From an uncultured Acidobacteriota bacterium (GTDB lineage Bacteria > Acidobacteriota > B3-B38 > Guanabaribacteriales > CAZYAF01): 64,000 bases of DNA. Both the position numbers and the translations under genes were made by a program. The stretch covers positions 4,332 to 68,331 of the forward strand of contig CAZYAF010000005.1 of NCBI GenBank assembly GCA_964645975.1, in the 5' to 3' direction. Below, piece after piece: positions 2,705 through 64,000 of the stretch (positions are counted from its first letter, which is position 1; each line of letters starts with the position of its first letter). The notes beneath the pieces are model-generated. The model was not told where the DNA came from, searched no databases, and saw nothing but the letters and a program-made list of their open reading frames with translations.

Positions 2705-3277
2705 ATGTTAGGAAAAGGATATATTAAAAAGGCCTGGAAACTCTATATGGGCGATTTGGCACCTTTTCTATTGGCCTGGATAATTCTCTCAATAATAAAT
2801 GCTGTTGCTTTTGGTATTCTTACCGGTCCTGTTGCCTGCGGAATGATATATATGACCCTGAAGAAATTACGCGGAGAGAAGATTGACATTTCCGATGCTT
2901 TCAAGGGTTTTGAAAACTTCGGTTATATTTTTCTTGCTGGTATTGTCTACAGTATAATAATAGGAGTTGGGTTTATATTTTTAATCATACCAGGATTTAT
3001 TTTAGGTGCTCTTCTCATTTTTATGTTCCCCTTTATAGTAGATAAGAAGATGGACTTCGTAGAGGCTTTTAAAGCAAGCGTTAATCTTGTTAAAGACAAT
3101 TTGTTAGAGCATACCCTCTTCTTTTTTGTCGCCGCTTTAATCGGTGCCAGCGGGATAATTTTCTTATTTATAGGGATATATTTTACTTTACCTTTATTTT
3201 ATATAGCTTATGGGGTTGCCTATTATAATTTGGTGTATCCTGCAGAAAAAGAAGCTGGCAAGCAGATTAAAACCTAA
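2705..3277 (+). CDS. small polytopic membrane protein, tandem paralog B
   Basis: 190-aa ORF with GAGGAGGTAG RBS; same N-terminus MLGKGYIKKAW and conserved LKK-RGEKI-DAF-GF-NFGY block as paralog A. Confidence 0.5.
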   Translation: MLGKGYIKKAWKLYMGDLAPFLLAWIILSIINAVAFGILTGPVACGMIYMTLKKLRGEKIDISDAFKGFENFGYIFLAGIVYSIIIGVGFIFLIIPGFILGALLIFMFPFIVDKKMDFVEAFKASVNLVKDNLLEHTLFFFVAALIGASGIIFLFIGIYFTLPLFYIAYGVAYYNLVYPAEKEAGKQIKT

Positions 3278-9773: not shown

Positions 9774-10532
9774 TTATTACCTTTTTATCCCGCAGGCGAA
9801 TATAAGCATATAAACATAGATTTACTATTCCTAAAAATTATGAAACCTGCAAATCCGGTAGCGCATGTCATTAAGCCATTACCCTCTATTAATTACCACT
9901 ATTGAGAGCCCTTAGTTACATTTGAGGATTCATTCGTTACAGCTAAAGCTACAATATACTTTGCTTTAATAGGAATATATCTAAAAGAGGTGACAGGATT
10001 TAGTAAAATGATATGATCGTAAAGACAGTTGGAATAGGATGTTAGGGATAATTATGTCTCAGCAAAATTAGCGGCACATGCCATCTCCTCCATATAAATC
10101 CAATGATAAATGAGGATTGCCAGAAACCTAAATAACTCAATTCTTTTAGTAGTAAACCTGGCCAACTAAATCCCTCGCCCAAACTGACCACAACAGCTAT
10201 GATTATTCCTGCTATAAGCCCTTGAAACAAGGCATAGCAAAAAGGATAAAATGGAAAAGCTGCGGTTTATTTTTCCATCTGCTGTATTTGCTATGACGAG
10301 CTGTTTGACAGCTCCTGATACCGTTTATATTATAACTCTCTAATATACTAATTTAAATCAATAAAAAAAGGAGCCCCCTCTAAATTAATGTTGTAGAAAG
10401 AGTTCCTAAAGTTTTCAGTCTTTTAGTAAGGTTATATTAAACTGCAAAATAATTTGATAATGGTGCTGATTTTAAATATTAACGACCTCCTGAATAGCAC
10501 TTTAATAGAAAAACCTATATTTTGCTGCTAAA

Positions 10533-24800: not shown

Positions 24801-25029
24801 CCTGCGCTGGCCCTGCAAACTGCATTACAAACTATCCTTTCTTGCTCAACGAGTGGCTCAAGCTGATTTTCCACCGACCACTCAGCAGATTGAAGTACAC
24901 AAAATGTTCAAAGAACAGTTAAGAAATCATCAAAGTCGTTTAAAAGAATTGATTGATAAAGACCTTGGTGCTTTTAACAATATGCTCAAAGAAAAAAATA
25001 TATCGAACATTATTATTCAAACACCTTGA
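21856..25029 (+). CDS. secreted BNR/Asp-box repeat beta-propeller protein (sortilin/Vps10-like), paralog 1
   Basis: 1057 aa; signal peptide; at least 10 Asp-box motifs (STDGGIHW, STDAGKTW, TTDGGKTW, SRDGGTTW, SDDGGESW, TTDGGHSW, TRDGGEHW and others). Confidence 0.7.
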   Translation: MLTKNFRSLSCLAVALLIFFVYVISGYAQEINPDLYKLLKYRFIGPQGNRFIAVVGVPGDPNICYAGAASGGIFKSTDGGIHWEPIFDDQPAASIGSLAIAPSDANIIWAGTGEISIRSNISQGNGIYKSTDAGKTWKHMGLTKTGRIGRIVIHPHNPDIVLAASMGHCYGPQQERGVFRTTDGGKTWERVLFADEDTGCSDIIMDPNNPRILFAGMWPKRIWPWLERKSGGPGGGIHMSRDGGTTWKHLTGGLPEPPIGKIALAMSKSNSNRVYALIEHKDGVLWRSDDGGESWKLINRHHELTHRPSYYTRCAVVPDDYNEIYFVATTFSVSYDGGETFKIVPRNQSPGGDNHDMWIDPLLPDRMMVGNDNPCVSISLNGGRTWDRVRLPTAQMYHVHVDNKIPYFVYGNRQDGPSTRGPSNSLTGRHIPSGLWHSVGGCECGFAIPDPVDNNIVWSGCYEGILDRFDLITGHSRSVSVWPDSCIGTEAAPLKYRFQWTFPIVISPHDNNKVFVGSQYVHQTTDGGHSWKIISPDLSTNNKKYQQPFGGITRDDESTYCCCIFALAESPVEEGLIWAGTNDGQVQVTRDGGEHWTNVTKNIPDFPPMGTVSNIEPSRYNAGTCYISVDFHNANIRDPYAYKTTDYGNTWELITKDIPKGELSYVHCIREDAKRKGLLYLGTENAVYISFDDGDHWMALQNNLPHAPVHWLVVQEHFNDLVIGTYGRGFWIMDDITPFQGLTSAVLKSDVHLFSIRPAYRFQMVSNPMGEEDDLNLGENPPYGASINYYLKSAPQGDVKISILNENGQNIRTLDGTKKAGINRVWWDLQYETLDVAKIRTSPIGEPWVKVGAKGYRTLVGVGGPPRVLVAPGVYAVKLTVNGKEFTQQLTVEKDPNSAGSKEDIQKQVKMLLEIRDDFNKLVKMINQVEWVRKQLYGLMEILKDDKRGEEIIKTGKELDKKFIDLEENFFQMRLTDSDNDILRWPCKLHYKLSFLAQRVAQADFPPTTQQIEVHKMFKEQLRNHQSRLKELIDKDLGAFNNMLKEKNISNIIIQTP

Positions 25030-25309: not shown

Positions 25310-28300
25310 ATGTATTCAAATAACAAATCGTTAACTCCCATCATATTGATTACTGCAATGACCTTCTTTATTGTTTTCGTAATCCCTTTTCACTGCAATG
25401 CCCAGGAGATTAATCCTGAATGGTTTAATCAGCTCAAATATCGTTTCATTGGCCCTCAGGGAAATCGTGTTATTGCGGTGGTTGGTGTTCCTGGAGACCC
25501 AGATGTTTATTACATTGGAGCAGCTTCGGGCGGTATATTTAAAAGCACTGATGGCGGAACTCATTGGAAATCCATTTTTGATGAGCAGCCTGTTTCTTCT
25601 GTTGGTTCTCTGGCAATTGCTCCCTCCGATCCCAATATCATCTGGGCAGGTACTGGTGAGACATTTATTCGCAGCAATATTTCTATCGGAAATGGCATAT
25701 ACAAATCCACTGATAGCGGAAAAACCTGGAAACTTATGGGCTTGGAAAAAACAGGGAGAATAGGCAGGATTATTATAGATCCCCATGACCCAAATATCGT
25801 ATTTGCTGCGGCGATGGGTCATTGCTACGGACCGCAAAAAGAGAGGGGAGTGTACCGCACTATTGATGGTGGCAAGACCTGGGAAAACGTCCTCTTTGTG
25901 GACGAAAACACTGGTTGTTCGGATATAGTTATGGATCCCAATAATCGACGGATTCTTTTTGCTGGCATGTGGCAATTGCAAATAAAGACCTGGGGAAGAG
26001 TGAGTGGCGGACCGGGCAGTGGACTTTATATGTCACGAGATGGTGGTGCTACCTGGAAAAAGCTCAACGATAACGGATTGCCGAAATCACCGATAGGAAA
26101 AATTGCATTGGCCATGTCGCCTGATAATTCCGAACGAATCTATGCTTTAATCGAAAGCGATGAGGGAGTACTCTGGAGGTCAGATGACGGAGGTGACAAC
26201 TGGAAAATGATCAACCATGATCATATGTTGACCCAGCGCCCTCATTATTATTCACGCTGTGCAGTGGCTCCGGATGACTACAATGAAATCTATTTTTGTG
26301 CTGTTCAACTCAGCATCTCTCTCGATGGCGGATTAACATTTAAAGGAGTACGATTGGTGGGTGGTGATAATCATGATATGTGGATCGATCCCCTTAATCC
26401 AGCCCGAATGGTTGTGGGCAACGATCAGGTTGTTGCCATCTCCGTTAATCGTGGTAAGTCATGGTTAGGAGTACCTCTTCCCATTTCTCAAATGTATCAT
26501 GTGGCCGTTGATAATCAAATACCTTATTATGTGTATGGAAACAGACAGGATGGCCCTTCTACCAGGGGGCCAAGCAACAGCTTAACCTATGGAGGGATTG
26601 CTTCTGGAATGTGGCATTCGGTGGGTGGCTGCGAGTGCGGATTTGCAATTCCTGACCCAGTGGATAATAATATCGTCTGGTCTGGTTGTTATGGAGGGTC
26701 GCTGGACCGTTTTGACCTACGAACAGGACATAGTCATAGAGTAAGTGCCTGGCCTGATAATCCTATGGGATGGCCGGCTGCTGATTTAAAATATCGCTTT
26801 CAGTGGACCTTCCCCATAGCAATATCACCCCATGATCATGACAAGGTATATATAGGCAGCCAATATGTACACCAGACAACCGATGGTGGCCATAGCTGGA
26901 AAATTATAAGCCCGGACCTTTCCACAAATGATAAAAGCAAACAACAAAGCTCAGGAGATATTACGCCAGATAACGCCAGCGTTGAATACTGCTGTCTAAT
27001 ATTTGCCCTGGTAGAATCTCCTGTCGAAGAAGGAGTTATATGGGCTGGTACCAATGATGGACTTGTTTGGGTTACTCGCAATGGCGGAGAAAATTGGACA
27101 AATGTCACTAAAAACATACCAAAACTTCCGCCCTGGGGGACAGTGAGCAATATAGAGCCATCGAGATATAATGCCGGTACCTGCTATATTACCATTGATT
27201 TTCATCAGGTTAACAATAGAGAGCCATATATTTATAAGACAGCTAATTACGGAAAGAGCTGGAAATTCATAAGTTCGGATATACCGAAGAGTGTATTAAG
27301 CTATGCTCACTGTATCCGCGAAGACCCGGTAAAAGAGGGATTGCTTTATCTGGGGACGGAAAATGCTCTGTATGTATCCTTTAATGATGGAGAAAATTGG
27401 CTGCCTTTACAGAGTAATTTACCGCATGCTCCCGTGCATTGGCTTGTTGTTCAGGAGCACTTCAATGATCTCGTGGTGGCCACCTACGGACGCGGTTTTT
27501 ATATACTTGATGACATAGCACCGCTTCAACAATTAAATAAAGATATTATTAATTCGGATGTTCATCTTTTTGCTCCACGGTCAGCATATCGTTTTCGATT
27601 TAAAGCAACTCCCATGAGCCAGCCAGGTGATCCATGTGCCGGAAAGAATCCTCCCTATGGTGCTTCTATGAACTACTATGTAAAATCAGAGCCGGAAGAA
27701 AAGGTAAAAATTACCATTCTAAATGAAAAAGGCGAAAAAATAAGAACTCTTGAAGGTACTAAAGAAGTGGGTATAAATCGTGTCTGGTGGGATTTACAAT
27801 ACGAGCCGATTAAAGAAGTTAAATTGAGAACAAGCCCGATTGGCTCACCTCATGTGAAAGTAGGAGAAAAAGGATGGAGACCTTTAGCCACATGGGGCGG
27901 AAAAATTAGCATTTTAGCTGCTCCTGGAACATATACAGTAAAGCTTGCCATAGGTGAAAAGGAATACAGCCAAAAGCTTACAGTTAAAAGGGATCCTAAT
28001 TCAACGGGAACCGAGGAAGACATTGAAGCTCAGACTGAGCTGTTGTTAGAAATTCGCAAGCATATTAACAATGTGGTAGAAATGATTAACCAAATTGAAT
28101 TAATCAGAAAACAGATTTATGATCTAAACGAACTACTGAAAGGGGAAGAAAATTCGGAAACACTCATTAAAGCGGGTAAAGCACTGGATAAGAAGTTTAT
28201 AGCTATAGAGGAAAATCTCATTCAAATGAAACTTACAGGAGCATGGCAGGATGCCTTGAGATGGCCCATTAAGCTCTATGCTAAGTTGAATAGTCTTGCT

Positions 28301-28486
28301 GGTGGTATAAGTAGTTCTGACTTTCCTCCAACTACACAGCAGATTGAAGTATATGAAGTGTTCAAAAGGAAGTTAGCAGAATATAAAAACAGCTACAAAG
28401 AATTACTTGATAAAGATTTTTCTAATTTTAATAATCTTCTAAGAGAAAAAAAATTACCGAATATTATTGCTGTTAAAAACCCTTAA
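25310..28486 (+). CDS. secreted BNR/Asp-box repeat beta-propeller protein (sortilin/Vps10-like), paralog 2
   Basis: 1058 aa; GAGGAGG RBS; roughly 75-80% identical to paralog 1 over the N-terminal region; same Asp-box series. Confidence 0.7.
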   Translation: MYSNNKSLTPIILITAMTFFIVFVIPFHCNAQEINPEWFNQLKYRFIGPQGNRVIAVVGVPGDPDVYYIGAASGGIFKSTDGGTHWKSIFDEQPVSSVGSLAIAPSDPNIIWAGTGETFIRSNISIGNGIYKSTDSGKTWKLMGLEKTGRIGRIIIDPHDPNIVFAAAMGHCYGPQKERGVYRTIDGGKTWENVLFVDENTGCSDIVMDPNNRRILFAGMWQLQIKTWGRVSGGPGSGLYMSRDGGATWKKLNDNGLPKSPIGKIALAMSPDNSERIYALIESDEGVLWRSDDGGDNWKMINHDHMLTQRPHYYSRCAVAPDDYNEIYFCAVQLSISLDGGLTFKGVRLVGGDNHDMWIDPLNPARMVVGNDQVVAISVNRGKSWLGVPLPISQMYHVAVDNQIPYYVYGNRQDGPSTRGPSNSLTYGGIASGMWHSVGGCECGFAIPDPVDNNIVWSGCYGGSLDRFDLRTGHSHRVSAWPDNPMGWPAADLKYRFQWTFPIAISPHDHDKVYIGSQYVHQTTDGGHSWKIISPDLSTNDKSKQQSSGDITPDNASVEYCCLIFALVESPVEEGVIWAGTNDGLVWVTRNGGENWTNVTKNIPKLPPWGTVSNIEPSRYNAGTCYITIDFHQVNNREPYIYKTANYGKSWKFISSDIPKSVLSYAHCIREDPVKEGLLYLGTENALYVSFNDGENWLPLQSNLPHAPVHWLVVQEHFNDLVVATYGRGFYILDDIAPLQQLNKDIINSDVHLFAPRSAYRFRFKATPMSQPGDPCAGKNPPYGASMNYYVKSEPEEKVKITILNEKGEKIRTLEGTKEVGINRVWWDLQYEPIKEVKLRTSPIGSPHVKVGEKGWRPLATWGGKISILAAPGTYTVKLAIGEKEYSQKLTVKRDPNSTGTEEDIEAQTELLLEIRKHINNVVEMINQIELIRKQIYDLNELLKGEENSETLIKAGKALDKKFIAIEENLIQMKLTGAWQDALRWPIKLYAKLNSLAGGISSSDFPPTTQQIEVYEVFKRKLAEYKNSYKELLDKDFSNFNNLLREKKLPNIIAVKNP

Positions 28487-44524: not shown

Positions 44525-44568
44525 CGGACAGCTAGATAGGCTGTCCCTACAAAGCATTTCTTCGCAGG
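44525..44568. repeat. dispersed copy of GGACAG-N9-CTGTCCCTACA-core repeat element
   Basis: cggacagctagataggctGTCCCTACAAAGcatttcttcgcagg matches units at 63697..63735 (core plus 11 of 14 flank bases identical). Confidence 0.45.
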
Positions 44569-44702
44569 GAAAGAGTTTGCATATGTCCAATGGTCAACAA
44601 TAGCACCTACACTAAACAATTTTGGGGGAACTTCAGATTTATTTTAATCTTGACTTTGCTAATAGTGTACCATAAGATTTATCATAGCCAATTCGAAATC
44701 AG

Positions 44703-47806: not shown

Positions 47807-47837
47807 ACCCGGTACCATAATGCCGGGTTTTTTTTTA
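47807..47837 (+). terminator. Rho-independent terminator downstream of ferredoxin gene
   Basis: stem ACCCGG / CCGGGT with 10-nt loop followed by run of 9 T. Confidence 0.6.
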
Positions 47838-47900
47838 GATTTTCGAACTAAAAAAGAGAATCTTTCGTTATTCATTAGAGGAAGGAGAAAGAAAAGGGTT

Positions 47901-48812
47901 ATGATCATCCAGCTAAATAATCTTTCCGTGGCATATGGAGAATTCTTTGCCCTTAAAGATATATCTTTTGATCTACCTGAGGGAGCTACCGGCCTGCTCG
48001 GTCCTAATGGAGCAGGTAAGACTACTCTTATTAAGACACTTTTAGGATTTCTGAAACCAAATCAAGGTGAAGCCTATATTTTAGGGCTGAACGCTCAAAG
48101 ACAGGGGAGGGATATTCGCCAAAAAGTTGGTTATATGCCGGAAGATGACTGTTTGATACCCGGTATGAGCGGTGTAGATTTTGTATCTTATTTTGGGCGG
48201 CTCTGCGGCTTACCCAAAGAAGACGCAATTCAACGAGCTCATGAGGTGCTCTTTTATGTTGGCCTGGGAGAAGCTCGCTATCGAAATGTAGAAACCTATT
48301 CCGCTGGGATGCGGCAGAGAATAAAATTAGCTCAGGCTTTTATCAATGATCCTCAGCTCCTTTTGCTGGATGAGCCCACAAACGGTATGGACCCACCGGG
48401 AAGGGCCGAAATGCTGGAGCTTATTAAGGACATCTCCAGTAAGAAAGGGATCAGTCTGATCCTATCATCTCATTTGCTGCCCGATGTTGAATATACCTGC
48501 GAAGAAGTGGTTGTTGTACACCAGGGAAGTCTTGTGGCACAGGGCAATATTCAGCAGCTCAAGGGAAAACATCAAAAGCTTTACGAGGTGCGAATTAAAG
48601 GAGATATGGAGAAATTTGGTGATGAGCTTGAAAAAGCTGGCTGTAAATGGCAGGTAGATGATGAGGGAATGATAAAAGTATTTTTGAAACAGAATTATGA
48701 TACCGATTTACTATTTCGAGCAGCATTGAGAAGTAATACACAAATACGGCATATGATCTCAAGTAAACATACGTTAGAAGATGTATTTATGAAAGTAGTA
48801 ACGGAGGAATAA
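47901..48812 (+). CDS. ABC transporter ATP-binding protein (module 1)
   Basis: start at ATG 47901 with GGAAGGAG RBS; Walker A GPNGAGKTT, signature YSAGMRQR, Walker B LLLLDEPT. Confidence 0.85.
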   Translation: MIIQLNNLSVAYGEFFALKDISFDLPEGATGLLGPNGAGKTTLIKTLLGFLKPNQGEAYILGLNAQRQGRDIRQKVGYMPEDDCLIPGMSGVDFVSYFGRLCGLPKEDAIQRAHEVLFYVGLGEARYRNVETYSAGMRQRIKLAQAFINDPQLLLLDEPTNGMDPPGRAEMLELIKDISSKKGISLILSSHLLPDVEYTCEEVVVVHQGSLVAQGNIQQLKGKHQKLYEVRIKGDMEKFGDELEKAGCKWQVDDEGMIKVFLKQNYDTDLLFRAALRSNTQIRHMISSKHTLEDVFMKVVTEE

Positions 48813-49664
48813 ATGCCAATCTTTGATCAAAGCTATCGCCATTATGAGGGTGAAGTCAAGGGATATTCCTTCCGCTGGTGGGTAATAACCCGTAGGGGCA
48901 TTATGCATTTCCTGCGAAAAAAGTGGTTTATTTTACTGCTGTTGCTGACCTTAATACCATTTTTAGTGCGCGGAGTGATGATATATGTAGCTACTCATTT
49001 TCCTGAAGCCAAGATGCAAATATTAGATATCAATCCACGGTTCTTCTACCAATATATACTTCAACAGCAATTTTTTCTTTTAATTATAACCATCTTGACA
49101 GGCTCAGGTCTAATAGCCAACGACCTGCGATATAATGCATTACAACTCTATTTATCAAAACCCATTCGCCGCTTTGATTACGTTGCAGGTAAACTGGGAG
49201 TGATCTCCTTTTTCTTATTTCTCATTACTCTGTTACCGTCTCTTTTCCTCTTTATTATTAGACTCCTTTTCTCAAACGACTTGAGTTTTTTAAAGCAATA
49301 CTATTGGCTGCCCCTATCCATAATCGCCTTTTGCATAATCATAATAGCAGTGACAGGCTTTCTTATTATGGCGATATCCTCTCTGTTTAAGAGCACTCGG
49401 TTGGCTGCCATTGTATTTGCTGTAGTATTTATGTTTAGTGCAGTAATGTATCAGATTTTATATCGAATTTATCATAATGACAAATTTGCTTTAGTTTCTT
49501 TTATTCATAATTTAGACCGGCTTGGCAGCAAGTTATTTGGAGTAAATATTAGATATAAATATAATTTTCATTGGGCCTGGTCTCTCCTGGTTTTAATTGG
49601 CATAATTGCCTTATCTCTATACATTTTACATAAAAGAGTCCGCGGTGTGGAGGTAGCAAAATGA
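48813..49664 (+). CDS. ABC-2-type transporter permease (module 1)
   Basis: 283 aa, about 6 TM helices, starts immediately after ATPase stop. Confidence 0.55.
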   Translation: MPIFDQSYRHYEGEVKGYSFRWWVITRRGIMHFLRKKWFILLLLLTLIPFLVRGVMIYVATHFPEAKMQILDINPRFFYQYILQQQFFLLIITILTGSGLIANDLRYNALQLYLSKPIRRFDYVAGKLGVISFFLFLITLLPSLFLFIIRLLFSNDLSFLKQYYWLPLSIIAFCIIIIAVTGFLIMAISSLFKSTRLAAIVFAVVFMFSAVMYQILYRIYHNDKFALVSFIHNLDRLGSKLFGVNIRYKYNFHWAWSLLVLIGIIALSLYILHKRVRGVEVAK

Positions 49665-50584
49665 GCGCTGTATATGAAGCCCAAGGAATATGCAAATGGT
49701 ATGGTCAGATTATAGCTTTGAATGACCTCAGCGTGAGCATAGGTACGGGTGTTATAGGACTGCTTGGGGCAAATGGCGCTGGTAAATCCACTTTTTTGAA
49801 ATTGTTAACCGGACAGTTAAAGTCGAGCAAAGGGAAACTTACCTTACATGGGCAAACCATCTGGAACAATTATCATCTTAATAAACTAATCGGTTTCGCA
49901 CCCGAACATGACGGCTTTTATCGCGGGATGACTGGACTTCAGTTTGTTACCTTAATAGCTCGACTCCATGGCTATCGCCCATCTGAAAGCAGAAAAAAGG
50001 CTCTCGAAGCATTGGAACTGCTCGACCTTATAGAAGCAAAGAACAAGAGGATAGCTGCTTACAGCCGCGGAATGCGGCAGAGGCTTAAGTTAGCTCAAGC
50101 CTTATGCCATGAGCCAGAGATTCTTCTCTTAGATGAGCCCCTGTCAGGTATGGACCCCATAGGTCGCCATAAAACTATTAATCTTATCAGAAAATTGGGT
50201 AAAGAGGGAAAAACTCTCGTTGTTTCAAGCCATATATTGCATGAAATCGAGGCAATGACCAATAATGTGCTTTTACTTCATAATGGTAGGCTATTAGCAG
50301 AAGGAGATGTTCATCAAATACGTCAGCTTATAGACGAGCATCCGCACAATATCTCTATAATTTGTGATAATCCACGAGATCTGGCAGCAAAGCTAATTGA
50401 ATATGACGATGTGATTAGTTTAAAATTCCAAAAAGATGATGACAGCATCCTGGTCGAAACTCTTCGACCGGATGATTTTTATTCCCGTATTCCAAAAATT
50501 GCTTTGGATAACAAAATTAAAATTGATATGTTTACATCCCCGGATGATAATTTAGAAGCAGTATTTAAATATTTGGTGAAATGA
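49661..50584 (+). CDS. ABC transporter ATP-binding protein (module 2)
   Basis: Walker A GANGAGKST, signature YSRGMRQR, Walker B ILLLDEPL; ATGA overlap with upstream permease. Confidence 0.85.
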   Translation: MSAVYEAQGICKWYGQIIALNDLSVSIGTGVIGLLGANGAGKSTFLKLLTGQLKSSKGKLTLHGQTIWNNYHLNKLIGFAPEHDGFYRGMTGLQFVTLIARLHGYRPSESRKKALEALELLDLIEAKNKRIAAYSRGMRQRLKLAQALCHEPEILLLDEPLSGMDPIGRHKTINLIRKLGKEGKTLVVSSHILHEIEAMTNNVLLLHNGRLLAEGDVHQIRQLIDEHPHNISIICDNPRDLAAKLIEYDDVISLKFQKDDDSILVETLRPDDFYSRIPKIALDNKIKIDMFTSPDDNLEAVFKYLVK

Positions 50585-51435
50585 TGACAAAAAGCCTACA
50601 AACAGCAGAAAACAAGAAAATTAAGGATATCAAAATAAATAATAAAGCATCATTGAGAGTAATTTTTTCTTTATCTTTCAAGCAGCTTTTCTGGAGTAAG
50701 AAGAGCATATTAATGTTCTTTATTGCCGCATTTCCTCCTGCTTTAGCTGTCATAACAGTAATGGTAAAAAAGCTCGGCTTGGGCTCAGTAGGTCTTACCA
50801 ACCTGGGACTCTTCTCCGTCATGATGTTTTTTGTGTTCCTTCAGTTTCTGGTGCTTATAGTGCCACTATTTTATGGTACTTCACTTATATCCGATGAAAT
50901 TGAACAAAAAACACTTACATACTTATTCACCAGCCCCATTCCCAAAAGCATCATAATACTAGGTAAATTTTTAGCACTAATTGGAATTAGTACCTTAATC
51001 ATAGTACTATCTGCTCTGATAACTTATTTTATCTTAATTGGACAAATGGGAGCTTATAGGCTGGTCGAACATTTACCAACACTTTTCAAAGATACTGGAG
51101 TGCTTCTATTAGGAATCCTCTGCTATGGAGCTTTCTTTACTTTCCTTGGAACAAGAACAAAACATCCTATTATTATCGGTTTGCTCTTTTCATTCGGCTG
51201 GGAGAGCATTATTAGCTATATCCCAGGGCAGGTAAAACGGCTCACAATAATGCATTACCTGCAGTCCATCTTCCCTCACCAGATGTGGCCTTCGGATGTC
51301 CGCGGATTATTAGCTATCTTTCACAAAGCTACCCCTTTCCTTCCTTCGCTCTTGACGCTTATAGGTATATGTGTTGGATTTGTGATGCTTTCCTTGCTTA
51401 CTCTTTATAATAAAGAATATCATCTTGAGACATAA
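50581..51435 (+). CDS. ABC-2-type transporter permease (module 2)
   Basis: 284 aa, about 6 TM helices, start overlaps ATPase stop. Confidence 0.55.
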   Translation: MMTKSLQTAENKKIKDIKINNKASLRVIFSLSFKQLFWSKKSILMFFIAAFPPALAVITVMVKKLGLGSVGLTNLGLFSVMMFFVFLQFLVLIVPLFYGTSLISDEIEQKTLTYLFTSPIPKSIIILGKFLALIGISTLIIVLSALITYFILIGQMGAYRLVEHLPTLFKDTGVLLLGILCYGAFFTFLGTRTKHPIIIGLLFSFGWESIISYIPGQVKRLTIMHYLQSIFPHQMWPSDVRGLLAIFHKATPFLPSLLTLIGICVGFVMLSLLTLYNKEYHLET

Positions 51436-53583: not shown

Positions 53584-54948
53584 CTATAGAGTATTCTCCA
53601 CCTCTTTTACTGCATCGATAAAAATATCAATCCCTTTCTTTGCCAGTTCTTCTGTGAGCACTAATGGAGGAAGGAATCGTGCTACATTATCATAATGGCC
53701 TCCTATCTCAATAAGAAGTCCGCTCTGATGGCAAAGAGTCCTCACTTTTTTAGCCAGATCCGTTGCTGGCTCTTTCGTATTTTTATCTTTGACAAATTCA
53801 ACCCCAAGCATCAAACCTTTCCCCCGTACCTGACCTATAATATTCGAATCTTTTTCCAGCTCTTTAAGCGTAGCCAGCATTAATCCACCAAGTTGAAGGG
53901 AATAGAAAGCTAAATTGTTTTTTACCATGAATTGTAACCCGGCGTTTCCTGCAGCATAGGCAATCACATTGCCCCGAAAGGTGCCGATATGCTTACCGGG
54001 TGGCCATATATCAGCTTCCTCTTTGTAAGCAATACAGGAAATGGGGAATCCCGCGCCACCAAGAGCTTTGCTCAAGGTTACAACATCGGGCACTATTCCT
54101 GAATGTTCGAAGGCAAACATCTTGCCCGTCCGGCAGAGACCAGCTTGTACCTCATCAACAATCATAATAATTTCATATTTATTGCAGATATCCCTGATCT
54201 TGGGAATAAAGAGGTCCGGTGGAACAATTGAGCCACCTTCCCCCTGGATGGCTTCTACGATTATTGCCGCCGGTTTTCCCACGCCTGAATGAGGGTCTTC
54301 AATAATATGCTCCAGATATTGAGCACAGTCGAGCTCACAGGTTGCCGGTTCTTTGTTAAAAGCACAACGATAGCAATAGGCGTAAGGTACAAAATGAACC
54401 TCCGGTACCATGGGCAGGAATTCTTCCTTGAAACCCAGACCGCTGGATAGTGAAAGCGCCCCGGCAGTCATTCCATGGTAAGAGCCTTCGAAGGAGATCA
54501 TAGGCTGCCGACCGGTGTTAAACTTTGCCAGCTTCATGGCTGCTTCCACTGCATCCGATCCTGTGGGGCCGCCAAACTGAACTCTGTTGAGCTGTTGAGG
54601 CAGCAAATTTAATAGGGTTTCTACTAACGCTCTGCGAGCTGGATTGGGAAAGTCGAGAAAATGGGTAAGGTCGAAGAGCTGCTCGGCAGCAGCATCAATA
54701 ACATCGGGATTTGCATGCCCCACGTTCATCACCCCGGCACCGCCGAAAAAGTCTATGTAGATGTTACCATCAACATCTTCCACCGTGGCACCCTTGGCTC
54801 GACTTACTGCCATGGGCATCCCCTTGGGATAAGAAACAGCAGCGCCTTCATTCATGGATTGATAGTCAAGAAACTCCTGTGACTTCGGTCCCGGTGGAGT
54901 AATATTTATTAACGGTGCATTAGCAAACGATAACTTCGTGAAATCCAT
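53584..54948 (-). CDS. class III (omega) aminotransferase, PLP-dependent
   Basis: 454 aa; DEVQAGLCRTGKMFA and TLSKALGGAGFP (PLP-lysine) motifs. Confidence 0.8.
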   Translation of the reverse strand: MDFTKLSFANAPLINITPPGPKSQEFLDYQSMNEGAAVSYPKGMPMAVSRAKGATVEDVDGNIYIDFFGGAGVMNVGHANPDVIDAAAEQLFDLTHFLDFPNPARRALVETLLNLLPQQLNRVQFGGPTGSDAVEAAMKLAKFNTGRQPMISFEGSYHGMTAGALSLSSGLGFKEEFLPMVPEVHFVPYAYCYRCAFNKEPATCELDCAQYLEHIIEDPHSGVGKPAAIIVEAIQGEGGSIVPPDLFIPKIRDICNKYEIIMIVDEVQAGLCRTGKMFAFEHSGIVPDVVTLSKALGGAGFPISCIAYKEEADIWPPGKHIGTFRGNVIAYAAGNAGLQFMVKNNLAFYSLQLGGLMLATLKELEKDSNIIGQVRGKGLMLGVEFVKDKNTKEPATDLAKKVRTLCHQSGLLIEIGGHYDNVARFLPPLVLTEELAKKGIDIFIDAVKEVENTL

Positions 54949-55345
54949 ATCTCCCCTCCCGAGGGATAAATTATAATAATCTATAAATGCAAATAGGCGT
55001 ATCTATTATAAACTATTATAAGTCAGGTATGCAAAGCTTATACTCATGATGGCTTGATTTTTTAATTATTTAATAGCTTTATCAAAATATTCTCGAAATC
55101 AGATATTTTTATATCAGAAAATAAATAATCCATTTAATAAAGGTGGATGTCCGAAAAGATATTGGTGCCTCATCATGGGACATATTCTTGAAATAGACAC
55201 AATGTTCGCCTCCCAGATATGCTAAGGCGGCTTGCAGGGACATGAAAAATAAATTGATATTTTTATAAAATTTTCTTGATTTGCACTGCTCCTGTGCTAA
55301 AATAAATGAAAAGTTTGAGTAGGAGGACTTAGACCACAGGGTCGG

Positions 55346-55375
55346 AGATGCTCCGAAAGGAGCATCTTTTATTTT
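55346..55375 (+). terminator. orphan terminator-like hairpin in 700-bp gene-free region (possible sRNA 3' end)
   Basis: stem AGATGCTCC / GGAGCATCT with GAAA loop followed by TTTTATTTT; no plus-strand CDS upstream. Confidence 0.4.
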
Positions 55376-55460
55376 ACATTTCCACAAGCTTCCGTCATAC
55401 TCTTCGTAGATAATCTTAAAGCAAATTAATAATGTCTCCACAATAAGGTATCTGCACTTC

Positions 55461-55481
55461 CCCTACACAGCCTGCCCTTCT
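55461..55481. repeat. dispersed copy of CCCTACACRG-CTGCCCTT repeat element
   Basis: ccctacacagcctgcccttct matches 63761..63780 (ccctacacggctgccctttg) at about 20 of 22 positions. Confidence 0.45.
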
Positions 55482-55658: not shown

Positions 55659-57452
55659 TTACAGGCTCTTTTTTATATTCTCGGCAGGTTTCTTACCAAG
55701 GAGCTGGCTGAGCTCTTCCAGACTGGCTTCCCTTATTTTTTTAATTGAACCGAAGTGTTTGAGCAAAAGTTCCTTTCGCTTAGTACCAATACCAGGGACG
55801 TTGTCAAGCTCCGAGACAATGGTACGCTTTTTTCGTAGTTTGCAATGGTACGCATGGGCGAAGCGATGCGATTCATCTCGAATCCGTTGTATCAGCCGCA
55901 GCGCTTCCGAGCCCTCTTGCAGCTTCAACGGTTCCTTTACTGTAGAGGCATAGAGTATCTCCTCCCGTTTGGCAATGGCTGCTGTGGGCATATTCTCCAA
56001 TCCCAATGCTGTCAGTACATCCCGTGCAGCCGAGAGCTGCCCTTTGCCGCCATCAAGCAGCACCATATCAGGCAGTGCCTTCTCCTCGCGCAACAGCCGC
56101 TTATAACGTCGCGAAACCACCTCGGCCATGGAGGCAAAGTCATCCAGTCCCTTCACTCCCTTTATCTTAAACCTGCGATAATCCGCTTTCTTGGCTTTGC
56201 CATCCTCAAACACCACCAATGAGGCTACCGCATCGGTGCCCGAAATGTTCGAGATATCAAAGGCCTCAATCCTCCTCGGTAGTTCGGGCAAATTCAACGC
56301 CTGCTTAAGCGCATACAGCACGCCTTCTCCCTCTTCAATAGCAAACTTATTGCGAAAAGATATCCGAGCATTATCCAGTGCCAACTGCAAAAGCTTCCGC
56401 TTCTTTCCCCGGCTGGGCGAGGTGATGTACACCCGATTTCCGCGCAAACGTGTTAACCATTGCTCCAGCAGCGGTCGCTCCTCAAAATCGAGCTGCACGT
56501 ATATTTTCGGTGGGATGGGCTGATCCCCATTGTAATATTGTTTGATCATGGAGCTGATGAATTCCTCAGGCTGAAAATCCACCAGCCCTTTCCAGAAGAA
56601 CTCACGCCGTCCTACTACCAGACCCTTGCGTATATGAAAGACCTGCAAGCACACCTTATCAGCCAGATGATAGAAGCCGAAGAGGTCCTCCTCTTCCATT
56701 CGAGTGGAAGCCATGCGCTGCTTGCTGGCCTGCCGCTCCAGCACTTTGATGGCATCCCGATAGTGCGCCGCCTTTTCGAATTTCTCCTCACCCGATGCTT
56801 TCTCCATCTTCAGCTTAAGTCGTTCAAGTAATTCCCTGTTCTTGCCTTCTAACAGAAGCCGCACATCCTCAACCGCTGCTTCATACTCCTCTTCGGTTGT
56901 CAGCGCCGCACACGGTGCCAGACAGCGGTTAATCTGGTAATCGAGGCAGGGGGTGAAGCGTTTACCCGGCAGTTTCAAGTCGCACTGCCTGAGCTGCATA
57001 TGGCGGGCAATAAGGCGCATGGTCTTGCGAGCCAGGCTGGCCGGGATATAAGGCCCGAAATAGAGCGCTCCATCCTTTTTCACCCGGCGCACTAACCGAA
57101 CTCGCGGATAGAGCTCGTTGATGCTCAACCGCAGATAGGGGAAGTTTTTATCATCCCGCAGCCGAACATTATATTTGGGCTGTTCCTTTTTTACCAGGTT
57201 GTTCTCCAGAATGAGGGCTTCCAGCTCGCTTTCGGTGATGATGAATTCGATATCAGCCGCCTCGCTGAGCATGGTTTCCTGCTTGATGGGAGCTTCGCCC
57301 GGTGCTTGAAAATAGGAGCGTACCCGATGGCGCAAGGATTGAGCTTTGCCAATATATATGGCCTTTTCCAGTGCATCTTTAAATATGTAAACGCCGGGTT
57401 TTAGGGGGAAAGATTCGACCTTTTTTTTGAGGGTATCCAGGATGTTATTCAT
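55659..57452 (-). CDS. uvrC: excinuclease ABC subunit C
   Basis: 597 aa; N-terminal GIY-YIG (PGVYIFKD...IYIGKA) and C-terminal helix-hairpin-helix; start overlaps uvrB stop by 1 nt (TAATG). Confidence 0.9.
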   Translation of the reverse strand: MNNILDTLKKKVESFPLKPGVYIFKDALEKAIYIGKAQSLRHRVRSYFQAPGEAPIKQETMLSEAADIEFIITESELEALILENNLVKKEQPKYNVRLRDDKNFPYLRLSINELYPRVRLVRRVKKDGALYFGPYIPASLARKTMRLIARHMQLRQCDLKLPGKRFTPCLDYQINRCLAPCAALTTEEEYEAAVEDVRLLLEGKNRELLERLKLKMEKASGEEKFEKAAHYRDAIKVLERQASKQRMASTRMEEEDLFGFYHLADKVCLQVFHIRKGLVVGRREFFWKGLVDFQPEEFISSMIKQYYNGDQPIPPKIYVQLDFEERPLLEQWLTRLRGNRVYITSPSRGKKRKLLQLALDNARISFRNKFAIEEGEGVLYALKQALNLPELPRRIEAFDISNISGTDAVASLVVFEDGKAKKADYRRFKIKGVKGLDDFASMAEVVSRRYKRLLREEKALPDMVLLDGGKGQLSAARDVLTALGLENMPTAAIAKREEILYASTVKEPLKLQEGSEALRLIQRIRDESHRFAHAYHCKLRKKRTIVSELDNVPGIGTKRKELLLKHFGSIKKIREASLEELSQLLGKKPAENIKKSL

Positions 57453-59449
57453 TAATCTACAAACAGCTCAATGGCTTTTCTTTTAAGTTCTTTAATGCGG
57501 TCTCGAAGCTGAGCGGCGCGCTCAAATTCCAGCTTTTTTGCCGCATCTTGCATTTCCTTATCCAGTTTTTTGATGAGCTGGCGCCGTTCCTCGCTGGTCA
57601 GATATTCCTCTCGCTCCTCAGCGGCCATGGGTATTTCATAATAATCCGCTTCGTATACGCTGGTAAGGACATCCTTGATGGATTTCTTAATGGTCTCCGG
57701 GGTTATGTTATGAGCTTTGTTGTATTCTATCTGAATCTGGCGGCGGCGATTGGTCTCGTCTATGGTCTGTTTAATTGAATTGGTGAGATTATCGGCGTAA
57801 AGCACTACCTGACCATTAACGTTGCGGGCTGCTCGACCGGATGTCTGGATTAGGGAAATGGTGGAACGCAGGAATCCCTCCTTATCGGCATCGAGAATAG
57901 CCACTAGCGAGACCTCAGGTAGATCCAGACCCTCACGCAGGAGATTGATTCCGATAAGGACGTCGAAGTCGCCGCGGCGGAACTCGCGGATAATCTTGAC
58001 CCGGTCCAGGGTATCAATGTCGGAATGGAGATAGCGTACCTTAACGCCGAGCTCCTCATAATATTCCGTCAGGTCTTCGGCCATGCGCTTGGTGAGGGTA
58101 GTGACCAGCACTCGCTCTTTTTGCTCCGCTCTCTCACGGATGCGCTGCAGCAGGTCGTCCACCTGGTTCTGTGCCGGCTGGATGATTATCTCCGGGTCAA
58201 TGAGGCCGGTTGGTCGAATTACCTGCTCCACTACTTCGCCACCAGTCTTCTCCAACTCGTAAGGACCGGGAGTGGCTGAGACGTAAATAATCTGCTTCGC
58301 CCGCTCCTTGAACTCTACGAATTTCAGCGGGCGGTTGTCCAGTGCCGACGGAAGGCGGAAACCGTATCTCACCAGGGTGGACTTGCGGGAATGGTCGCCC
58401 TCGTACATGCCGCGCAGTTGGGGGATGGTAACGTGGCTTTCATCTATTACAATGAGGGCATCACGCGGAAGATAGTCCAGCAAACAGGGCGGCGGCTCTC
58501 CCGGCTTTCGGCCGGTGAGGTGGCGCGAGTAGTTTTCGATGCCCTGGCAGTAGCCGATCTCCTTCATCATCTCCAGGTCGTAGAGGGTGCGCTCGCGGAT
58601 GCGCTGAGCTTCTACCAGCTTGTTCTCTTTGAGCAATTTTTTATGGTGCACCTCCAGCTCTTCGCGAATGGACTGAAGGGCGCTGCGCATTTGTTCCTCG
58701 GGTGTAACATAATGGGATTTGGGGTAGATGGGCACCCGTTGGACTTCTTCCCTCACCTTGCCGGTGAGAGGGTCCACCAGCCTGAGGTGGTCAATCTCGT
58801 CACCGAAGAGCTCGATGCGCACGGCTTCGTCGGCATAGGGTGGGAAGACTTCAACCACATCGCCGCGCACGCGGAAGGTGCCGCGCCCGAAGCTCATGTC
58901 GTTGCGCTCGTACTGTATGTTCACCAGCTTGTGCAATATCTCCCGGCGAGAGATCTCCATGCCGTGTTCCAGCAGGAGCAGCATGCCGTAGTAGGCTTCC
59001 GGAGAGCCCAGGCCGTAGATGCATGAGACGCTGGCCACGATGAGCACATCGCGGCGCTCGAAGAGGGCGCGGGTGGCGGAGTGGCGCATGCGGTCGATTT
59101 CGTCGTTGATGTCGGCATCCTTGGCAATGTAGGTGTCTGTGGCGGGTACGTAGGCTTCGGGCTGGTAGTAGTCGTAGAAGCTGACGAAGTATTCAACTGC
59201 GTTCTGCGGGAAGAAGCTCTTGAACTCCTGATAAAGCTGAGCAGCCAGGGTCTTGTTGTGGGAGATGACGATGGTGGGGAGCCTGACCTGCTCCACCACC
59301 TTGGCCACGGTGAAGGTCTTGCCCGAGCCAGTGACGCCCAGCAGCACCTGATGCTGCTTGCCTTGCAGCACTCCCCGGGCTAACTCCTCGATAGCCGTGA
59401 CCTGGTCGCCTTTGGGCTCAAACTCCGAGATAAGCTTAAATTCACTCAT
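57452..59449 (-). CDS. uvrB: excinuclease ABC subunit B
   Basis: start set to ATG 59449 ([16 protein letters not shown]); Walker [13 protein letters not shown]-like helicase motifs, C-terminal UVR domain; upstream 45 codons of track ORF are non-homologous. Confidence 0.9.
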
Positions 59450-59580
59450 GGTTATTAAACAAAACAGTACCAAAAAACAGTAATAAATTGTAGTACAGGA
59501 TGAAATAATAGTCAATTTAGCAATAAATGATAATAATATAAAAAACGATATAAGAATTTTAATTAATAAACGGGAAGATA

Positions 59581-62500
59581 TCAATTAATTTCTATAAGCT
59601 GATTTAGTGCATCATTTATTTCTTTAGCATTAAATTTAGCTGATACAATATATTTTGTTAATTCATCTTTTTTAATAGAATCAATAAGATTTTCAAGAAA
59701 TTCAGAAATGGTTTTATAGTATTTCTCATTCTTTAATTGAGAAAATTCAGCGATAAGATAATTTTTTACTTCAATAACAGCATCACCAAGATTTTCCTCT
59801 TGCTTCCTAAATTTAATCCTATATCGATTATATAACTCAATTTCAAATTGATTTTTGGATGAGATTAATTGTTGAATTTTATGGTAATGACCAACTATTT
59901 TTTCCAAAGCTATAAGCAAAGCTTGGATTTTAAGGTTAATTTCATTTTTTGGATAAGGTTCAAATTGAATTTGTGGAAGATAGCTCCAAATTTCTTTTGG
60001 TGGTTCTCTTGGCACTAACCATTCCCAAGTACTTAGGTTATTAGGATCAAATTGGGAAATATTATTAGAACTTATTACGTAAGCACCTGGAATAAACCTT
60101 TTATCATTGAAAATAGGAATAATACAGAAAAATCCTGCTATATCTTTGACTTTATGAAGTTCTTTTATAACTTTTAATATAGATTCTATTAATAGAGAGG
60201 GATTATCTACAGAAAAAGCAAAAGGAAGATAAGTTATAGGATATTCAATATGTTCACCAGATGGAAGTATTATTTTCATACCTTCTACTTCAAGAGTAGA
60301 AAGTGCTTTGGATAGGAGATTAAGCTTTTCCTGACGTTTTCTCTGCCTTATAGTTTTAATATACAAATTAATATTTTGCAGAGGTTTTTCAGGAGGATTA
60401 AGTATCCATACTTCTAATAAATCCGCTAAACACTTATAAGCTTTTAATTCTAAGGAATCTAATTCGCATGAATTGAAATAGTCTGGTGCAATATTGAAAA
60501 TATATTTAAAAACAAGATGCATTTTTGGAAGCTGTTTTAAAGAATCAAAAAAGTTATGTACCGCTAATCTGCCTGTTTTAATTTCTTTCTTTCTTAAATA
60601 TTCTATTAATTGTATAAAAAAATTTTTGAAACTTAAAGAGCACTTATCAGCTGCATTTTCCTTTAGAATATCTTTTAAAGGTTGTTTAATTTCTTTCCCC
60701 ATTCTTTTAAAGTTTTCAATAGAAATAGATGGAGCAAATTTTTGCGACAGTTCTAACTCCTCTATAAGTCTACCATCATCGAATAAAGATTTAATATCAT
60801 ATTTTTTATTAGTTAAGATACAATTTAAAAATTTTGAAAAATTCTGTACAAAGAGCAATGATTTTTTTCGAAGAACGTACCAATGTTCTTCTAATTTATA
60901 AAAAGTATCAGTAAAATATGCTCTCTCTATAATATTACGCCATACTATATTCTTTTCAACATCAAATTCTAAAGGTAGATTTTTTTGGGGAATATTTTTA
61001 TATGTCTCATCTATAGACGGCTTTAAGCCTAAAGGCAGAAGCCATAAGCCTTGTGATTTATAATTTCTACAGAAGGGGATAGCAGCTCGTAATTTCTGAA
61101 GTTTTGATACCGCTTGATCATTAAAGCTTATCTTATTATCTGTTTCTGGTATAAACTCCATATATAACTCATTATTTTTAATTTCTAATGTAACACAGTC
61201 TGTATGTAATTTTAAATATCCTATAAGGGTATCAGTATTTTTTAAAAACCAATTTTTATATGATCTTTCATCATATCTATAAAGACCTTGAGTAAATTTG
61301 CAAAGAGTGTCTATATTAACTTCAAAAAACCTATTATATAAAAATATATTATTTTTAACTTTTTTCCAACTAGACAATTCAATATTGCATAAATAACACC
61401 AATCAAGAATTTGTCCTATTTTAGCTAAATTATTTCGGATTATATCAATATCCATGTATGCATTTATTTTGCTTAAAAAATTACTGCAGAATTCTATTCC
61501 TCTTGGAATATTAGTAAATCTTGTTTTTATTTCTTTTAACTTTCTAAAATTTTCAAAAAGATCTCCTTCCATTTCAGCTATAATATCTATCATATCTATT
61601 TTTGCTAATGGTATAAAAGCAGTGCTTAGCCAAAATGGACCGACTGATCCAACTAACTTGTATGCTTCATCAAATAGTCCACGATTAGCTTCAAAGAATT
61701 TTCTTTCACCTGCTTCAAAAATACCATCGAGGAAAGCTAAAATTGTATCTATTTTTGCATCTTTTGCCTTCTCAATTAGTCCATTCATAAAAAGTTCTGT
61801 ATCGAGTTCTTTTTTGGATATAGCATTTAATACAAAATTACTCATATTTTCTGATGGAACAGCATCTAAGATTGAAAGTGCTGTCCTTGCAGGATTAAGA
61901 TACTGCTCATGAAGGATCTTAGAAAGGTGATCAGATCGTACCCAATGAAGCTCAATAAGCAGTTCGTCTTCTATGCGCAGATATTCTTCGGATAAAGATT
62001 GCAGTACTTGTTGTGGATCATGTCTTAGTTGTATCTTATCAAGGAGTTTATTAACCAAAATAGGTGATCCCAATTCATGAGCCAAAGATACTCTGCGTAA
62101 TATTTCTATTTTAGCTGGATCTTCATTATGAGCTGTGATCTGTTTTACTTGGTCTCGAAGTCGTTCTTCGAGCATTTTTCCATGTGTGATAAAATAAACA
62201 TATTCCATCAGCAGAGGAGGCTCTCCAATTTTCTCGAATGCCCATTCTGCTGAATCAACAGAGTCGTGAATTCGATTTTGGATTTGAAAAGATTTAAATA
62301 TATCCTTTGCTTCATTGAGATCAAGTGCTGGTTCAAGTATTTCATAATTTGTTAAGCTTAGACGAGCAGTTCTATACCAATCTTCTTCTCTGATTGAGAC
62401 TAAAACATAGAAACCAAGAGAAGCACATTCTTGTGCTATATTTGGCCAGAGTCGAGTCTGCCAGCTGGCATTGTCTATAAGTAATAAAATTGGTATTCCC

Positions 62501-63528
62501 AGTCTTGCCTTTAATCTTAGGTATCTGCGTATAATCTCAACCTGTTCTTCTGATTTTGCTATCCTTAAAATATGTGTGTATTCCGAGTCCCAATTTTCAT
62601 ATGCATATCTGTAAAGTAATGTAGATTTTCCTTGTCCGCTTGAAGATTTTAGAATACAAACTTTGGAAATTTTTAATGCTTTATCAATCCTTTTAAGCCA
62701 ACTTGGGCGTTTGACATCAACATTAGAAACTATATGACCTGGTCTAGTCCCTTTGCCTTCGAAAAAGTCTACAATCTTTTCATCTTCTTGCCATATAATT
62801 CTATCAATTAATCCCTTTCCAGAAGCTTGATATTCACTCTCTTGAGCTAAATATTCACCTATTGTATCCCTAAGTTTTTCAAGTTCAAGGCGAGTAATTT
62901 CTTTTCGTTCCTTTGCCCAAGATATAAACTCAGCAGTGAAAGCTTTTATATATATGTCAACAGCATCGCTTCCTAAATTAAATTTTTCTGAAATAACCTT
63001 ACTAAGTTTTTTCCACAATTGATCTTCAGGAATTGATTCAATTTCTAGACGCTGAAGCAAATTATGGGCTTCATATTCATTTGAACCTTTCTGATTGCAT
63101 AAATTAATAAACTTATTCTTAATACGATTTTTTTCCTCATAGGAAAGCAATTTAAGTTTTGCTAGTTTAGCAATATCCTTCTTTAAAGAAAAGTTTGTTA
63201 TAAGTTTAAAATGAGCTTTAGGATTTATTTGTAATACTTCTAAGAACTTATTTATTGGATCTTTTAGTTTACTCCATGGCCATGGATTAATAGAAGTTTT
63301 AACTTGGATGTATATATCATTTATTGAATGTAAAACTAAAAGATCAACATCTTCAATCCCTTCAAGTCTTATAGAATGATATTTACAATCATTTTTTAAA
63401 AGATCAAAAGCACATAGTATAGAGTATAATAGTTGAAATTCAATACCACGAATGTTTTTGGCTCCACCGCCTCTTTGTTCAATAAGTTTAGTAAGATTAG
63501 TTTTTATACTTTTATTATTTGATTTCAT
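59581..63528 (-). CDS. large single-polypeptide putative defense protein: N-terminal PD-(D/E)xK nuclease (DUF4297/Mrr-like) + STAND-type P-loop NTPase + long alpha-helical C-terminal region (Avs-like architecture)
   Basis: 1315 aa; N-terminal [17 protein letters not shown]...[10 protein letters not shown]...IYIQVKT (D/E...QxK pattern); Walker A SSGQGKST; Walker [11 protein letters not shown]; sensor-like VLVSIR; [14 protein letters not shown] helical-domain start; very AT-rich. Confidence 0.55.
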
Positions 63529-63696
63529 ATCTAAACTTGATAAATGATTTATTACTTTTAATATTACTATATATAGCTAATTTGGTCAAGAGAATTTTTT
63601 ATATTTAATGGCTATTGAATGTTTTGTTGATATACAAATTTTTATTGATAAAAAATAAGCAATGCAGCACATTATTGGATGAGAAATAAGCAGCTG

Positions 63697-63822
63697 CGGA
63701 CAGAGGCAAGTCCCTACACAGGATTCCTTCGTAGGATTGACGGACAGACACAAGGCCTGTCCCTACACGGCTGCCCTTTGAAGGATAAAAACAGAGCGGC
63801 ATGGCCGCTTGTCCCTACACGG
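63697..63822. repeat. tandem array of three 12-bp GTCCCTACAC(A/G)G motifs at about 50-bp spacing, two preceded by CGGACAG half-palindrome
   Basis: cores at 63710..63721, 63759..63770, 63811..63822; CGGACAG at 63697 and 63741; related copies at 44543 and 55461. Confidence 0.5.
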
Positions 63823-64000
63823 AAAACGGTGGTCAGTTATCGGTTGTCTGTTGTTAGTCTCCAGTTGTCAGTTATTAGTATTTAGTCGCTGGTTGCGAGT
63901 TATGAAAGGATATCGCTATAGCCTTCGGCTATAACTATCGGACAGGAAGCGTGGCTTCTTTGCTATCTGATTGCAAAAACCGTACTTTTTCGAACCAATA

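Follow-up and report, generated by a model that had tools for sequence, protein, structure and literature searches.

Twelve-nucleotide repeats near uvrB as the probable core of a REP/BIME-like family of intergenic palindromes in a deeply branching uncultured lineage

GTAG-tagged REPs are extragenic palindromes of 20-40 nt with a conserved GTAG or GTRG at one end of the stem, dispersed over the genome in tens to thousands of copies, and they flank a cognate RAYT/TnpA-REP gene. Their stems measure 5-13 bp and their loops 2-20 nt. Clusters are frequent, the large ones being built of tandem reiterations of units and of the DNA that flanks them, and a head-to-tail arrangement is rare in the families described (PMC3733652). 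In characterised systems, the RAYT/TnpA-REP enzyme recognises the unit as a folded single strand, and cleavage requires the GTAG (PMC8266576). We analysed a set of short direct repeats located upstream of a giant gene in a 64-kb stretch of DNA from an uncultured lineage (the whole of this stretch is hereafter referred to as the window). These 12-mers probably represent the most strongly conserved part of palindromic intergenic repeats of the REP/BIME type, which form a family specific to this lineage. The dimensions of their palindromic stems and loops lie inside the published range (PMC3733652), a conserved GTAG is present at one end of the stem, the location is extragenic and the clusters are of mosaic composition. 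The family is new; its type is well known.

The 12-mer and the unit around it

The sequence GTCCCTACACRG is present in exact form at 63710-63721, 63759-63770 and 63811-63822, in each case on the + strand. When one mismatch was allowed, four matches were found in the window (the fourth at 44543), versus 0.12 expected, and four or more matches were obtained in none of 100 dinucleotide-preserving shuffles; with two mismatches allowed, the excess (5 versus 2.4 expected) was not significant on its own. The first-pass annotation had listed the copies at 63710, 63759 and 63811 as near-identical; they are in fact exact, and the motif is more frequent in the window than expected. There are nine copies of the heptamer CCCTACA on the + strand of the window and its extension (see below) and none on the - strand, and all nine are intergenic. 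The core TCCCTACA is almost invariant across species, an apparent invariance due in part to the way in which the copies were found. On inspection, the units retrieved through their 5' arm alone had kept CCCTAC in 12 of 13 cases and the adjacent CTGT in 7 of 13, which is only suggestive of a conservation of the tag beyond search bias.

Alignment of the units showed that conservation reaches far past these 12 nt. The unit is modular, with a length of 45-75 nt, and the 12-mer is the junction of two of its hairpins. A full unit consists, in this order, of an A-rich lead (AATAA), a variable GC hairpin, the inverted repeat GGACAG-N9-CTGTCC and CCCTACACGG-N4-CCGTtGTAGGG, whereas the short form lacks the 5' arm and the loop of the middle hairpin. 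The GC-rich hairpin varies in sequence but is constant in form (AAGCNGC-n3-4-GCNGCTT; for example, AAGCAGCtatcGCTGCTT, GCGGCtgtGCCGC and CCAGCgttGCTGG), and certain copies allow the GGACAG-N9-CTGTCC stem to be extended to 7-8 bp. The minus-strand reading of every unit is CCGTGTAG, directly followed by GGACAG-loop-CTGTCC, the GC hairpin and a T-rich tail (for example, TTTGCTAT or TTTATTTTT). A GTAG is thus immediately followed by a 6-8-bp stem-loop, a second GC hairpin and, often, the T-rich tail. The junction of CCGTGTAG with GGACAG was read in 16 units. The GTAG is also part of the second palindrome, in which it can pair, and it is not clearly unpaired.

The units and related features identified in the window are as follows.

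44525..44570, + strand: solitary unit; GGACAG (44526-31), CTAGATAGG, CTGTCC (44541-46), 12-mer variant GTCCCTACAAAG (44543-54), tail closing with GCAGGGA; E=2.6e-5
55459..55479, + strand: possible relic CCCTACACAGCCTGCCCTT, without a hairpin; E=8.9; 18/19 positions plus one gap relative to unit B
63690..63737, + strand: unit A; remnant GC palindrome GCAGCTGC, GGAC-N8-GTCC, 12-mer 63710-63721, tail closing with GTAGGA; profile E=2.7e-6
63741..63786, + strand: unit B; GGACAG (63742-47), ACACAAGGC, CTGTCC (63757-62), 12-mer 63759-63770, tail CTGCCCTTTGAAGGA; profile E=8.6e-8
63795..63830, + strand: unit C, short form; TTGTCCCTACACGG (12-mer 63811-63822) immediately after the GC hairpin AGCGGCatgGCCGCT (63795-63809), truncated tail; E=5.5e-5
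63832..63873, + strand: degenerate heptamer tract (GTCAGTT), six copies, within the array
63915..63935: hairpin GCTATAGCC-ttc-GGCTATAAC, within the array
63940..63966, + strand: opposite-orientation module GGACAG-GAAGCgtgGCTTC-TTTGCTAT, the same module as the minus strand of short-form units
63967..64000: AT-rich spacer of an inverted pair

The inverted repeat GGACAG-N9-CTGTCC, previously ascribed to two of the array copies, is intact in the second (63742-63762) and reduced to a shortened GGAC-N8-GTCC in the first. The counterpart of unit A in a related species (L102; see below) has retained the full AAGCAGCttgtGCTGCTT hairpin. The hairpin and loop of unit B recur in two other relatives, in L041 and, twice, in L101. 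On the minus strand, unit C presents a terminator-like hairpin followed by CTGTTTTTAT.

The solitary unit lies 19 kb from the array. The description of this copy as GGACAG-N9-CTGTCCCTACAAAG proved accurate, and its flank agrees with that of the array copy at 11 of 14 positions. A relative, L108 (88% HtrA identity), lacks this unit at the orthologous intergenic site, and this comparison of a filled and an empty site (44.1-44.7-kb gap) revealed no definable target-site duplication or clean insertion boundary. The partial motif CCTACAC is found at 44604-44612, 61 nt downstream of the solitary unit and in the same orientation; it falls within about 110 nt missing from L108 and may be a decayed second unit. 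The similarity claimed for the 55461 copy holds as far as the sequence match to unit B is concerned, but the copy has no hairpin and a poor profile score, it sits in a fast-diverging, poorly conserved stretch, and it is at best a decayed relic. The suggestion that the 55461 and 63761 copies bracket the uvrC-uvrB-giant gene block depends on this weak relic. The family thus occupies three loci, one of them a weak relic, in about 83 kb of the source genome.

The array was suspected to continue past the end of the window, and this is the case. The JGI contig Ga0079367_1000096 provides 469 nt beyond the window. In extended coordinates, the array reaches at least 64469, and four further copies lie at 64046, 64113, 64184 and 64330. 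The last two of these copies (64184 and 64330) are part of a tandem duplication, in which a segment of 137 nt recurs at 97% identity and a spacing of 146 nt. The array is at least 780 nt long; it comprises seven units, a single inverted module and the tandem duplication of the 146-nt block, and its GC content is 0.447, versus 0.29 for other intergenic DNA. The three 12-mers of the window are 49 and 52 nt apart, but the period of about 50 bp proposed from them does not extend to the array as a whole, in which the spacing is irregular (49, 52, 233, 67, 71 and 146 nt). The module at 63940-63966 forms an inverted pair with the unit at 64029-64051 (extended coordinates), around the AT-rich spacer, for a total of about 110 nt, and its arms (30 nt) are 77% complementary. 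Inverted pairs of matching length were found twice in L101 and once in L041, with spacers unrelated in sequence. Most units are head-to-tail singletons, next to four inverted pairs of conserved length.

The giant-protein gene is present on JGI contigs Ga0079367_1000096 and Ga0111033_1049796 and on one Logan contig. Both JGI contigs stop inside the 137-nt repeated block, and the end of Logan contig L003 falls exactly on CTGTCCCTACACGG of unit B. Assemblies break on these repeats, which implies that there are further identical copies elsewhere in the genome, and the repeat family explains the breakage of every assembly of this organism at this locus.

Distribution in relatives and genomic neighbourhood

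A profile built from 15 units was used to search 148.5 kb of DNA from this lineage. It gave 16 significant matches, all of them intergenic, whereas about 84% of the window is coding; together with the nine CCCTACA heptamers, these matches bear out the earlier statement that the copies are intergenic. Units are found only between genes, in either orientation, on the promoter side of genes and in convergent gaps. Copy density is low outside the clusters, with none in about 35 kb of related flanking sequence.

The family was detected in three relatives: L101 (93% UvrC identity) and L102 (83%), both reached through UvrC homologues, and the 1.1-kb metagenome contig L041. In L102, the giant gene is present and the array lies upstream of it, with the contig ending inside a unit; its first units are the counterparts of window units A and B, but it lacks about 370 nt found in the window between units B and F, and it carries an opposite-orientation unit just after uvrC, where the window has none. 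L101 lacks the giant gene; it has units upstream of uvrB and in the two gaps that come next, each between convergent genes, and two units lie just past the stop codons of convergent genes. The profile search found no unit in a further 5.5 kb of the L101 contig, and the neighbouring gene in L101 has no close orthologue in the source species. The copies in L041 adjoin a different gene on an otherwise unrelated contig. Array content thus differs among the window, L102 and L101, but a cluster lies near uvrB in all three species, a position that could also reflect some retained local function.

Searches in wider collections returned no members other than L041. Among 185,579 species genomes, a pattern with 17 specified bases (GTCCCTACACGGNNNNCCNTTG) gave 18 matches, all single coding or chance matches and none a true copy; half of them correspond to one conserved gene common to Bacteroidales genomes. 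In JGI/ENA metagenome contigs, 71 matches were obtained, of which only L041 is a true relative, and the matches in IMG/VR were only chance or coding, with no related copy. A search of the published literature for the 12-mer yielded only unrelated primer matches. The nearest named homologues of the host proteins have only about 50-56% identity: those of UvrC are acidobacterial (about 56%), and those of HtrA are from Latescibacteria, Eisenbacteria, KSB1 and Calditrichaeota. The repeats would extend the GTAG-tagged REP/BIME type to a deeply branching uncultured lineage, which is probably a candidate phylum close to the FCB group or to Acidobacteria, with a family absent from the 185,579 reference species genomes.

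The GC content of the giant gene (59581-63528) is 0.285, that of the neighbouring uvrB and uvrC 0.49-0.51 and that of the window 0.38. L101 lacks this gene, and L102 has it with 73% nucleotide identity. The only domain recognised in its product is nSTAND_NTPase5, and PADLOC gave no match for this protein. With uvrB on one side and the repeat cluster on the other, the gene resembles an inserted variable island. The cluster marks the exact boundary of this variable defence-like island, and such clusters can be hot spots of recombination or insertion. We reject the idea that the array is a specific control region of the giant gene: the association is coincidental, because L101, which lacks the gene, keeps a cluster upstream of uvrB.

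Several other features of the neighbourhood were recorded. The uvrC and uvrB genes (55659-59584) have a GC content of about 0.50, well above that of the rest of the window, and the closest named homologues of their products are acidobacterial (about 56% identity), in contrast to those of HtrA; horizontal acquisition is one possible cause, a strong constraint on composition another. On the minus strand, about 400 nt of intergenic DNA (54950-55390) that precede the class-III aminotransferase gene (53584-54948) are about 90% identical to L101 and as conserved as the flanking genes. This segment contains the hairpin AGATGCTCCtttcGGAGCATCT, with a possibly compensatory hairpin change; a 426-nt JGI feature is called here, there is no credible Rfam match, and the segment is a candidate leader or ncRNA. 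Another JGI feature (9899-10230), the length of which does not match its product, lies in a 760-nt intergenic gap and has no Rfam match at E <=1. The window also contains two tandem sortilin/BNR paralogues of about 1057 aa (21856-25029 and 25310-28486; 70-76% nucleotide identity, raised GC), two tandem paralogous genes for small membrane proteins (1650-2216 and 2705-3277; 72%) and duplicated pairs of ABC ATPase and permease genes (47820-51435).

Folding evidence and alternative explanations

The folds of well-preserved units comprise three hairpins, whichever strand is taken (z -2.9 to -4.6), and 85.5% of cells are paired in the proposed register, versus 40-56% when the partners are slid. Four terminator-like hairpins with T-rich tails, versus 0.9 expected, are present on the minus strand, co-oriented with the giant gene-uvrBC operon. 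These features, and the position of two L101 units just past the stop codons of convergent genes, would be in keeping with units that are mainly RNA elements (co-transcribed terminators, insulators or mRNA stabilisers, or an array of sRNAs), kept for their role and not mobile. However, the compensatory changes sought in addition to the hairpins are weak: double changes affect two pairs, a score equalled by 64 of 500 shuffles, and RNAalifold retained only five pairs (-1.36 kcal/mol). The stems are decayed, with mismatches in many copies, and wobble pairs show no strand preference (8 cells versus 5). This combination of weak covariation, mismatched stems and unbiased wobbles suggests palindromic DNA repeats decaying after insertion rather than a conserved functional RNA. 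Moreover, no promoter-like sites were found inside the array; Rfam had no match at gathering thresholds in the window, those in the array being at chance level only (E >=1); and the units occur in both orientations relative to genes, including divergent promoter gaps with nothing upstream to terminate. A primary role as RNA is therefore unlikely. The small ORFs of the array have no plausible coding potential, and a tRNA scan found no tRNA. We also regard as doubtful a non-mobile local satellite, generated by duplication and recombination around uvrB, with the distant copies as old segmental transfers. In each of the three species, most units do lie no more than a few kb from uvrB, the 146-nt tandem duplication would fit such a process, and no RAYT or other transposase gene was found in the 64-kb window or in about 85 kb of related DNA. 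Nevertheless, a satellite of this kind does not account well for the solitary unit 19 kb away and absent from L108, the inverted copy after uvrC in L102, the copies beside a different gene on an unrelated 1.1-kb contig, or the break of L003 at unit B, which implies further identical genomic copies.

The iteron-like reading of the first-pass annotation, developed here into a regulator that would bind the double-stranded 12-mer and control the giant gene or uvrBC, draws on three exact direct repeats about 50 bp apart and 180-300 bp upstream of the gene, on the near-invariance of TCCCTACA across species and on the conserved position of the cluster near uvrB. We find it quite improbable. Part of the invariance comes from the copy-finding method, the conserved unit is a hairpin-based element of 45-75 nt rather than a 12-mer, and the half-sites of GGACAG-N9-CTGTCC are in the opposite order to those of the E. 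coli LexA box. The sites are neither regularly phased nor confined to promoters beside a rep or regulated gene: their context is chromosomal and housekeeping, with no rep or dnaA gene, and the array persists in L101 without the giant gene. This reading fails because the spacing is irregular, the 12-mers sit among hairpins, and units are found between convergent genes and in reversed copies, and the alternative put forward alongside it, a REP/MITE-like structured repeat, is the one that the hairpin modules, their intergenic position, their variation among species and their effect on assemblies favour. The proximity of a large, variable, defence-like gene in two species and the succession of a repeat and a variable segment might also evoke a guide-RNA-like array (a CRISPR or TIGR analogue) working with the adjacent nSTAND NTPase. 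This is extremely improbable and already largely refuted by L101, in which units occur in a genome without the gene, as they also do away from it in other cases; the variable segments are palindromic hairpins recurring elsewhere and not unique spacers of fixed length behind a constant repeat, the periods vary, neither cas nor Tas-like effector genes are present, and the giant protein has no PADLOC match. The guide-array reading thus breaks down on two points, the recurrence of the palindromic variable parts and the occurrence of units where there is no NTPase. In a related scheme, which we consider very improbable, a minus-strand transcript of the array would be processed into unit-length multi-hairpin RNAs acting with the nSTAND NTPase or regulating it (an RNA-plus-STAND conflict system), the solitary units being decayed by-products.

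Other candidates were rejected. A LexA/SOS box, considered because of the presence of uvrB, has its half-sites in the reverse order, and units lie away from promoters. Integron attC sites would have GTTRRRY/RYYYAAC ends, not found here, and the 50-150-nt spacing is too small for cassettes. There is no GC-skew turn and no dnaA gene that would indicate a replication origin.

The REP/BIME-like family is thus repeated, hairpin-based, exclusively intergenic, modular, variable among species and associated with assembly breaks, and its units have been duplicated in tandem within a clustered array. By analogy with characterised REP systems (PMC8266576, PMC3733652), we infer that the units are mobilised by a RAYT-type activity: a HUH tyrosine transposase of the RAYT/TnpA-REP type would spread them by binding the hairpin folded in single-stranded DNA and using the GTAG tag, and the array would grow by tandem duplication and recombination. 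Any effect on the host would probably be generic, the architecture of the units and the behaviour of characterised REP systems suggesting that hairpins and T-tracts may terminate or insulate transcription or stabilise mRNA ends. More generally, what looks like a short "binding-site array" beside a striking gene can be just the visible part of longer repeats with a palindromic structure.

Comparison with described repeat families

As in plasmid iterons and operator arrays, a short conserved core is directly repeated upstream of a gene, but the locus differs from them in its irregular spacing, hairpin context, chromosomal housekeeping neighbours, convergent gaps and use of both orientations. It shares with the pneumococcal BOX, Neisseria Correia and ERIC elements the combination of modules in variable number, the intergenic location and strong folding; unlike these elements, it has no terminal inverted repeats of the whole element, no target-site duplication and no identified parent IS. 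The lack of terminal inverted repeats and of a target-site duplication also separates it from MITEs derived from DDE transposons, the inverted modules observed here being internal hairpin units and not element termini. The inverted GGACAG-hairpin-TTTGCTAT pairs around a spacer, of about 107-125 nt in three species, are reminiscent of the REPINs of Pseudomonas and Enterobacteria, but their spacers are unrelated, there are only four pairs, most units are tandem singletons and the arms have different internal hairpins.

The closest match is with the GTAG-tagged REP/BIME families that accompany RAYT/TnpA-REP proteins, such as E. coli REP/BIME, Stenotrophomonas SMAG and the Pseudomonas REPs. The present family differs from them in being a composite of up to three hairpins with the GTAG inside the second palindrome, in the mostly head-to-tail arrangement of its array units, in the absence of a RAYT gene from the DNA examined and in its host, an uncultured lineage with its nearest named homologues (Acidobacteria, Latescibacteria, KSB1 and Eisenbacteria) at about 50-56%. 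It nonetheless shares with them short extragenic palindromes with a GTAG directly 5' of a 6-8-bp stem, subfamilies differing in stem and loop, T-rich terminator-like tails, restriction to one lineage, and an organisation into singles, inverted pairs 20-100 bp apart and large tandem clusters that include flanking DNA.
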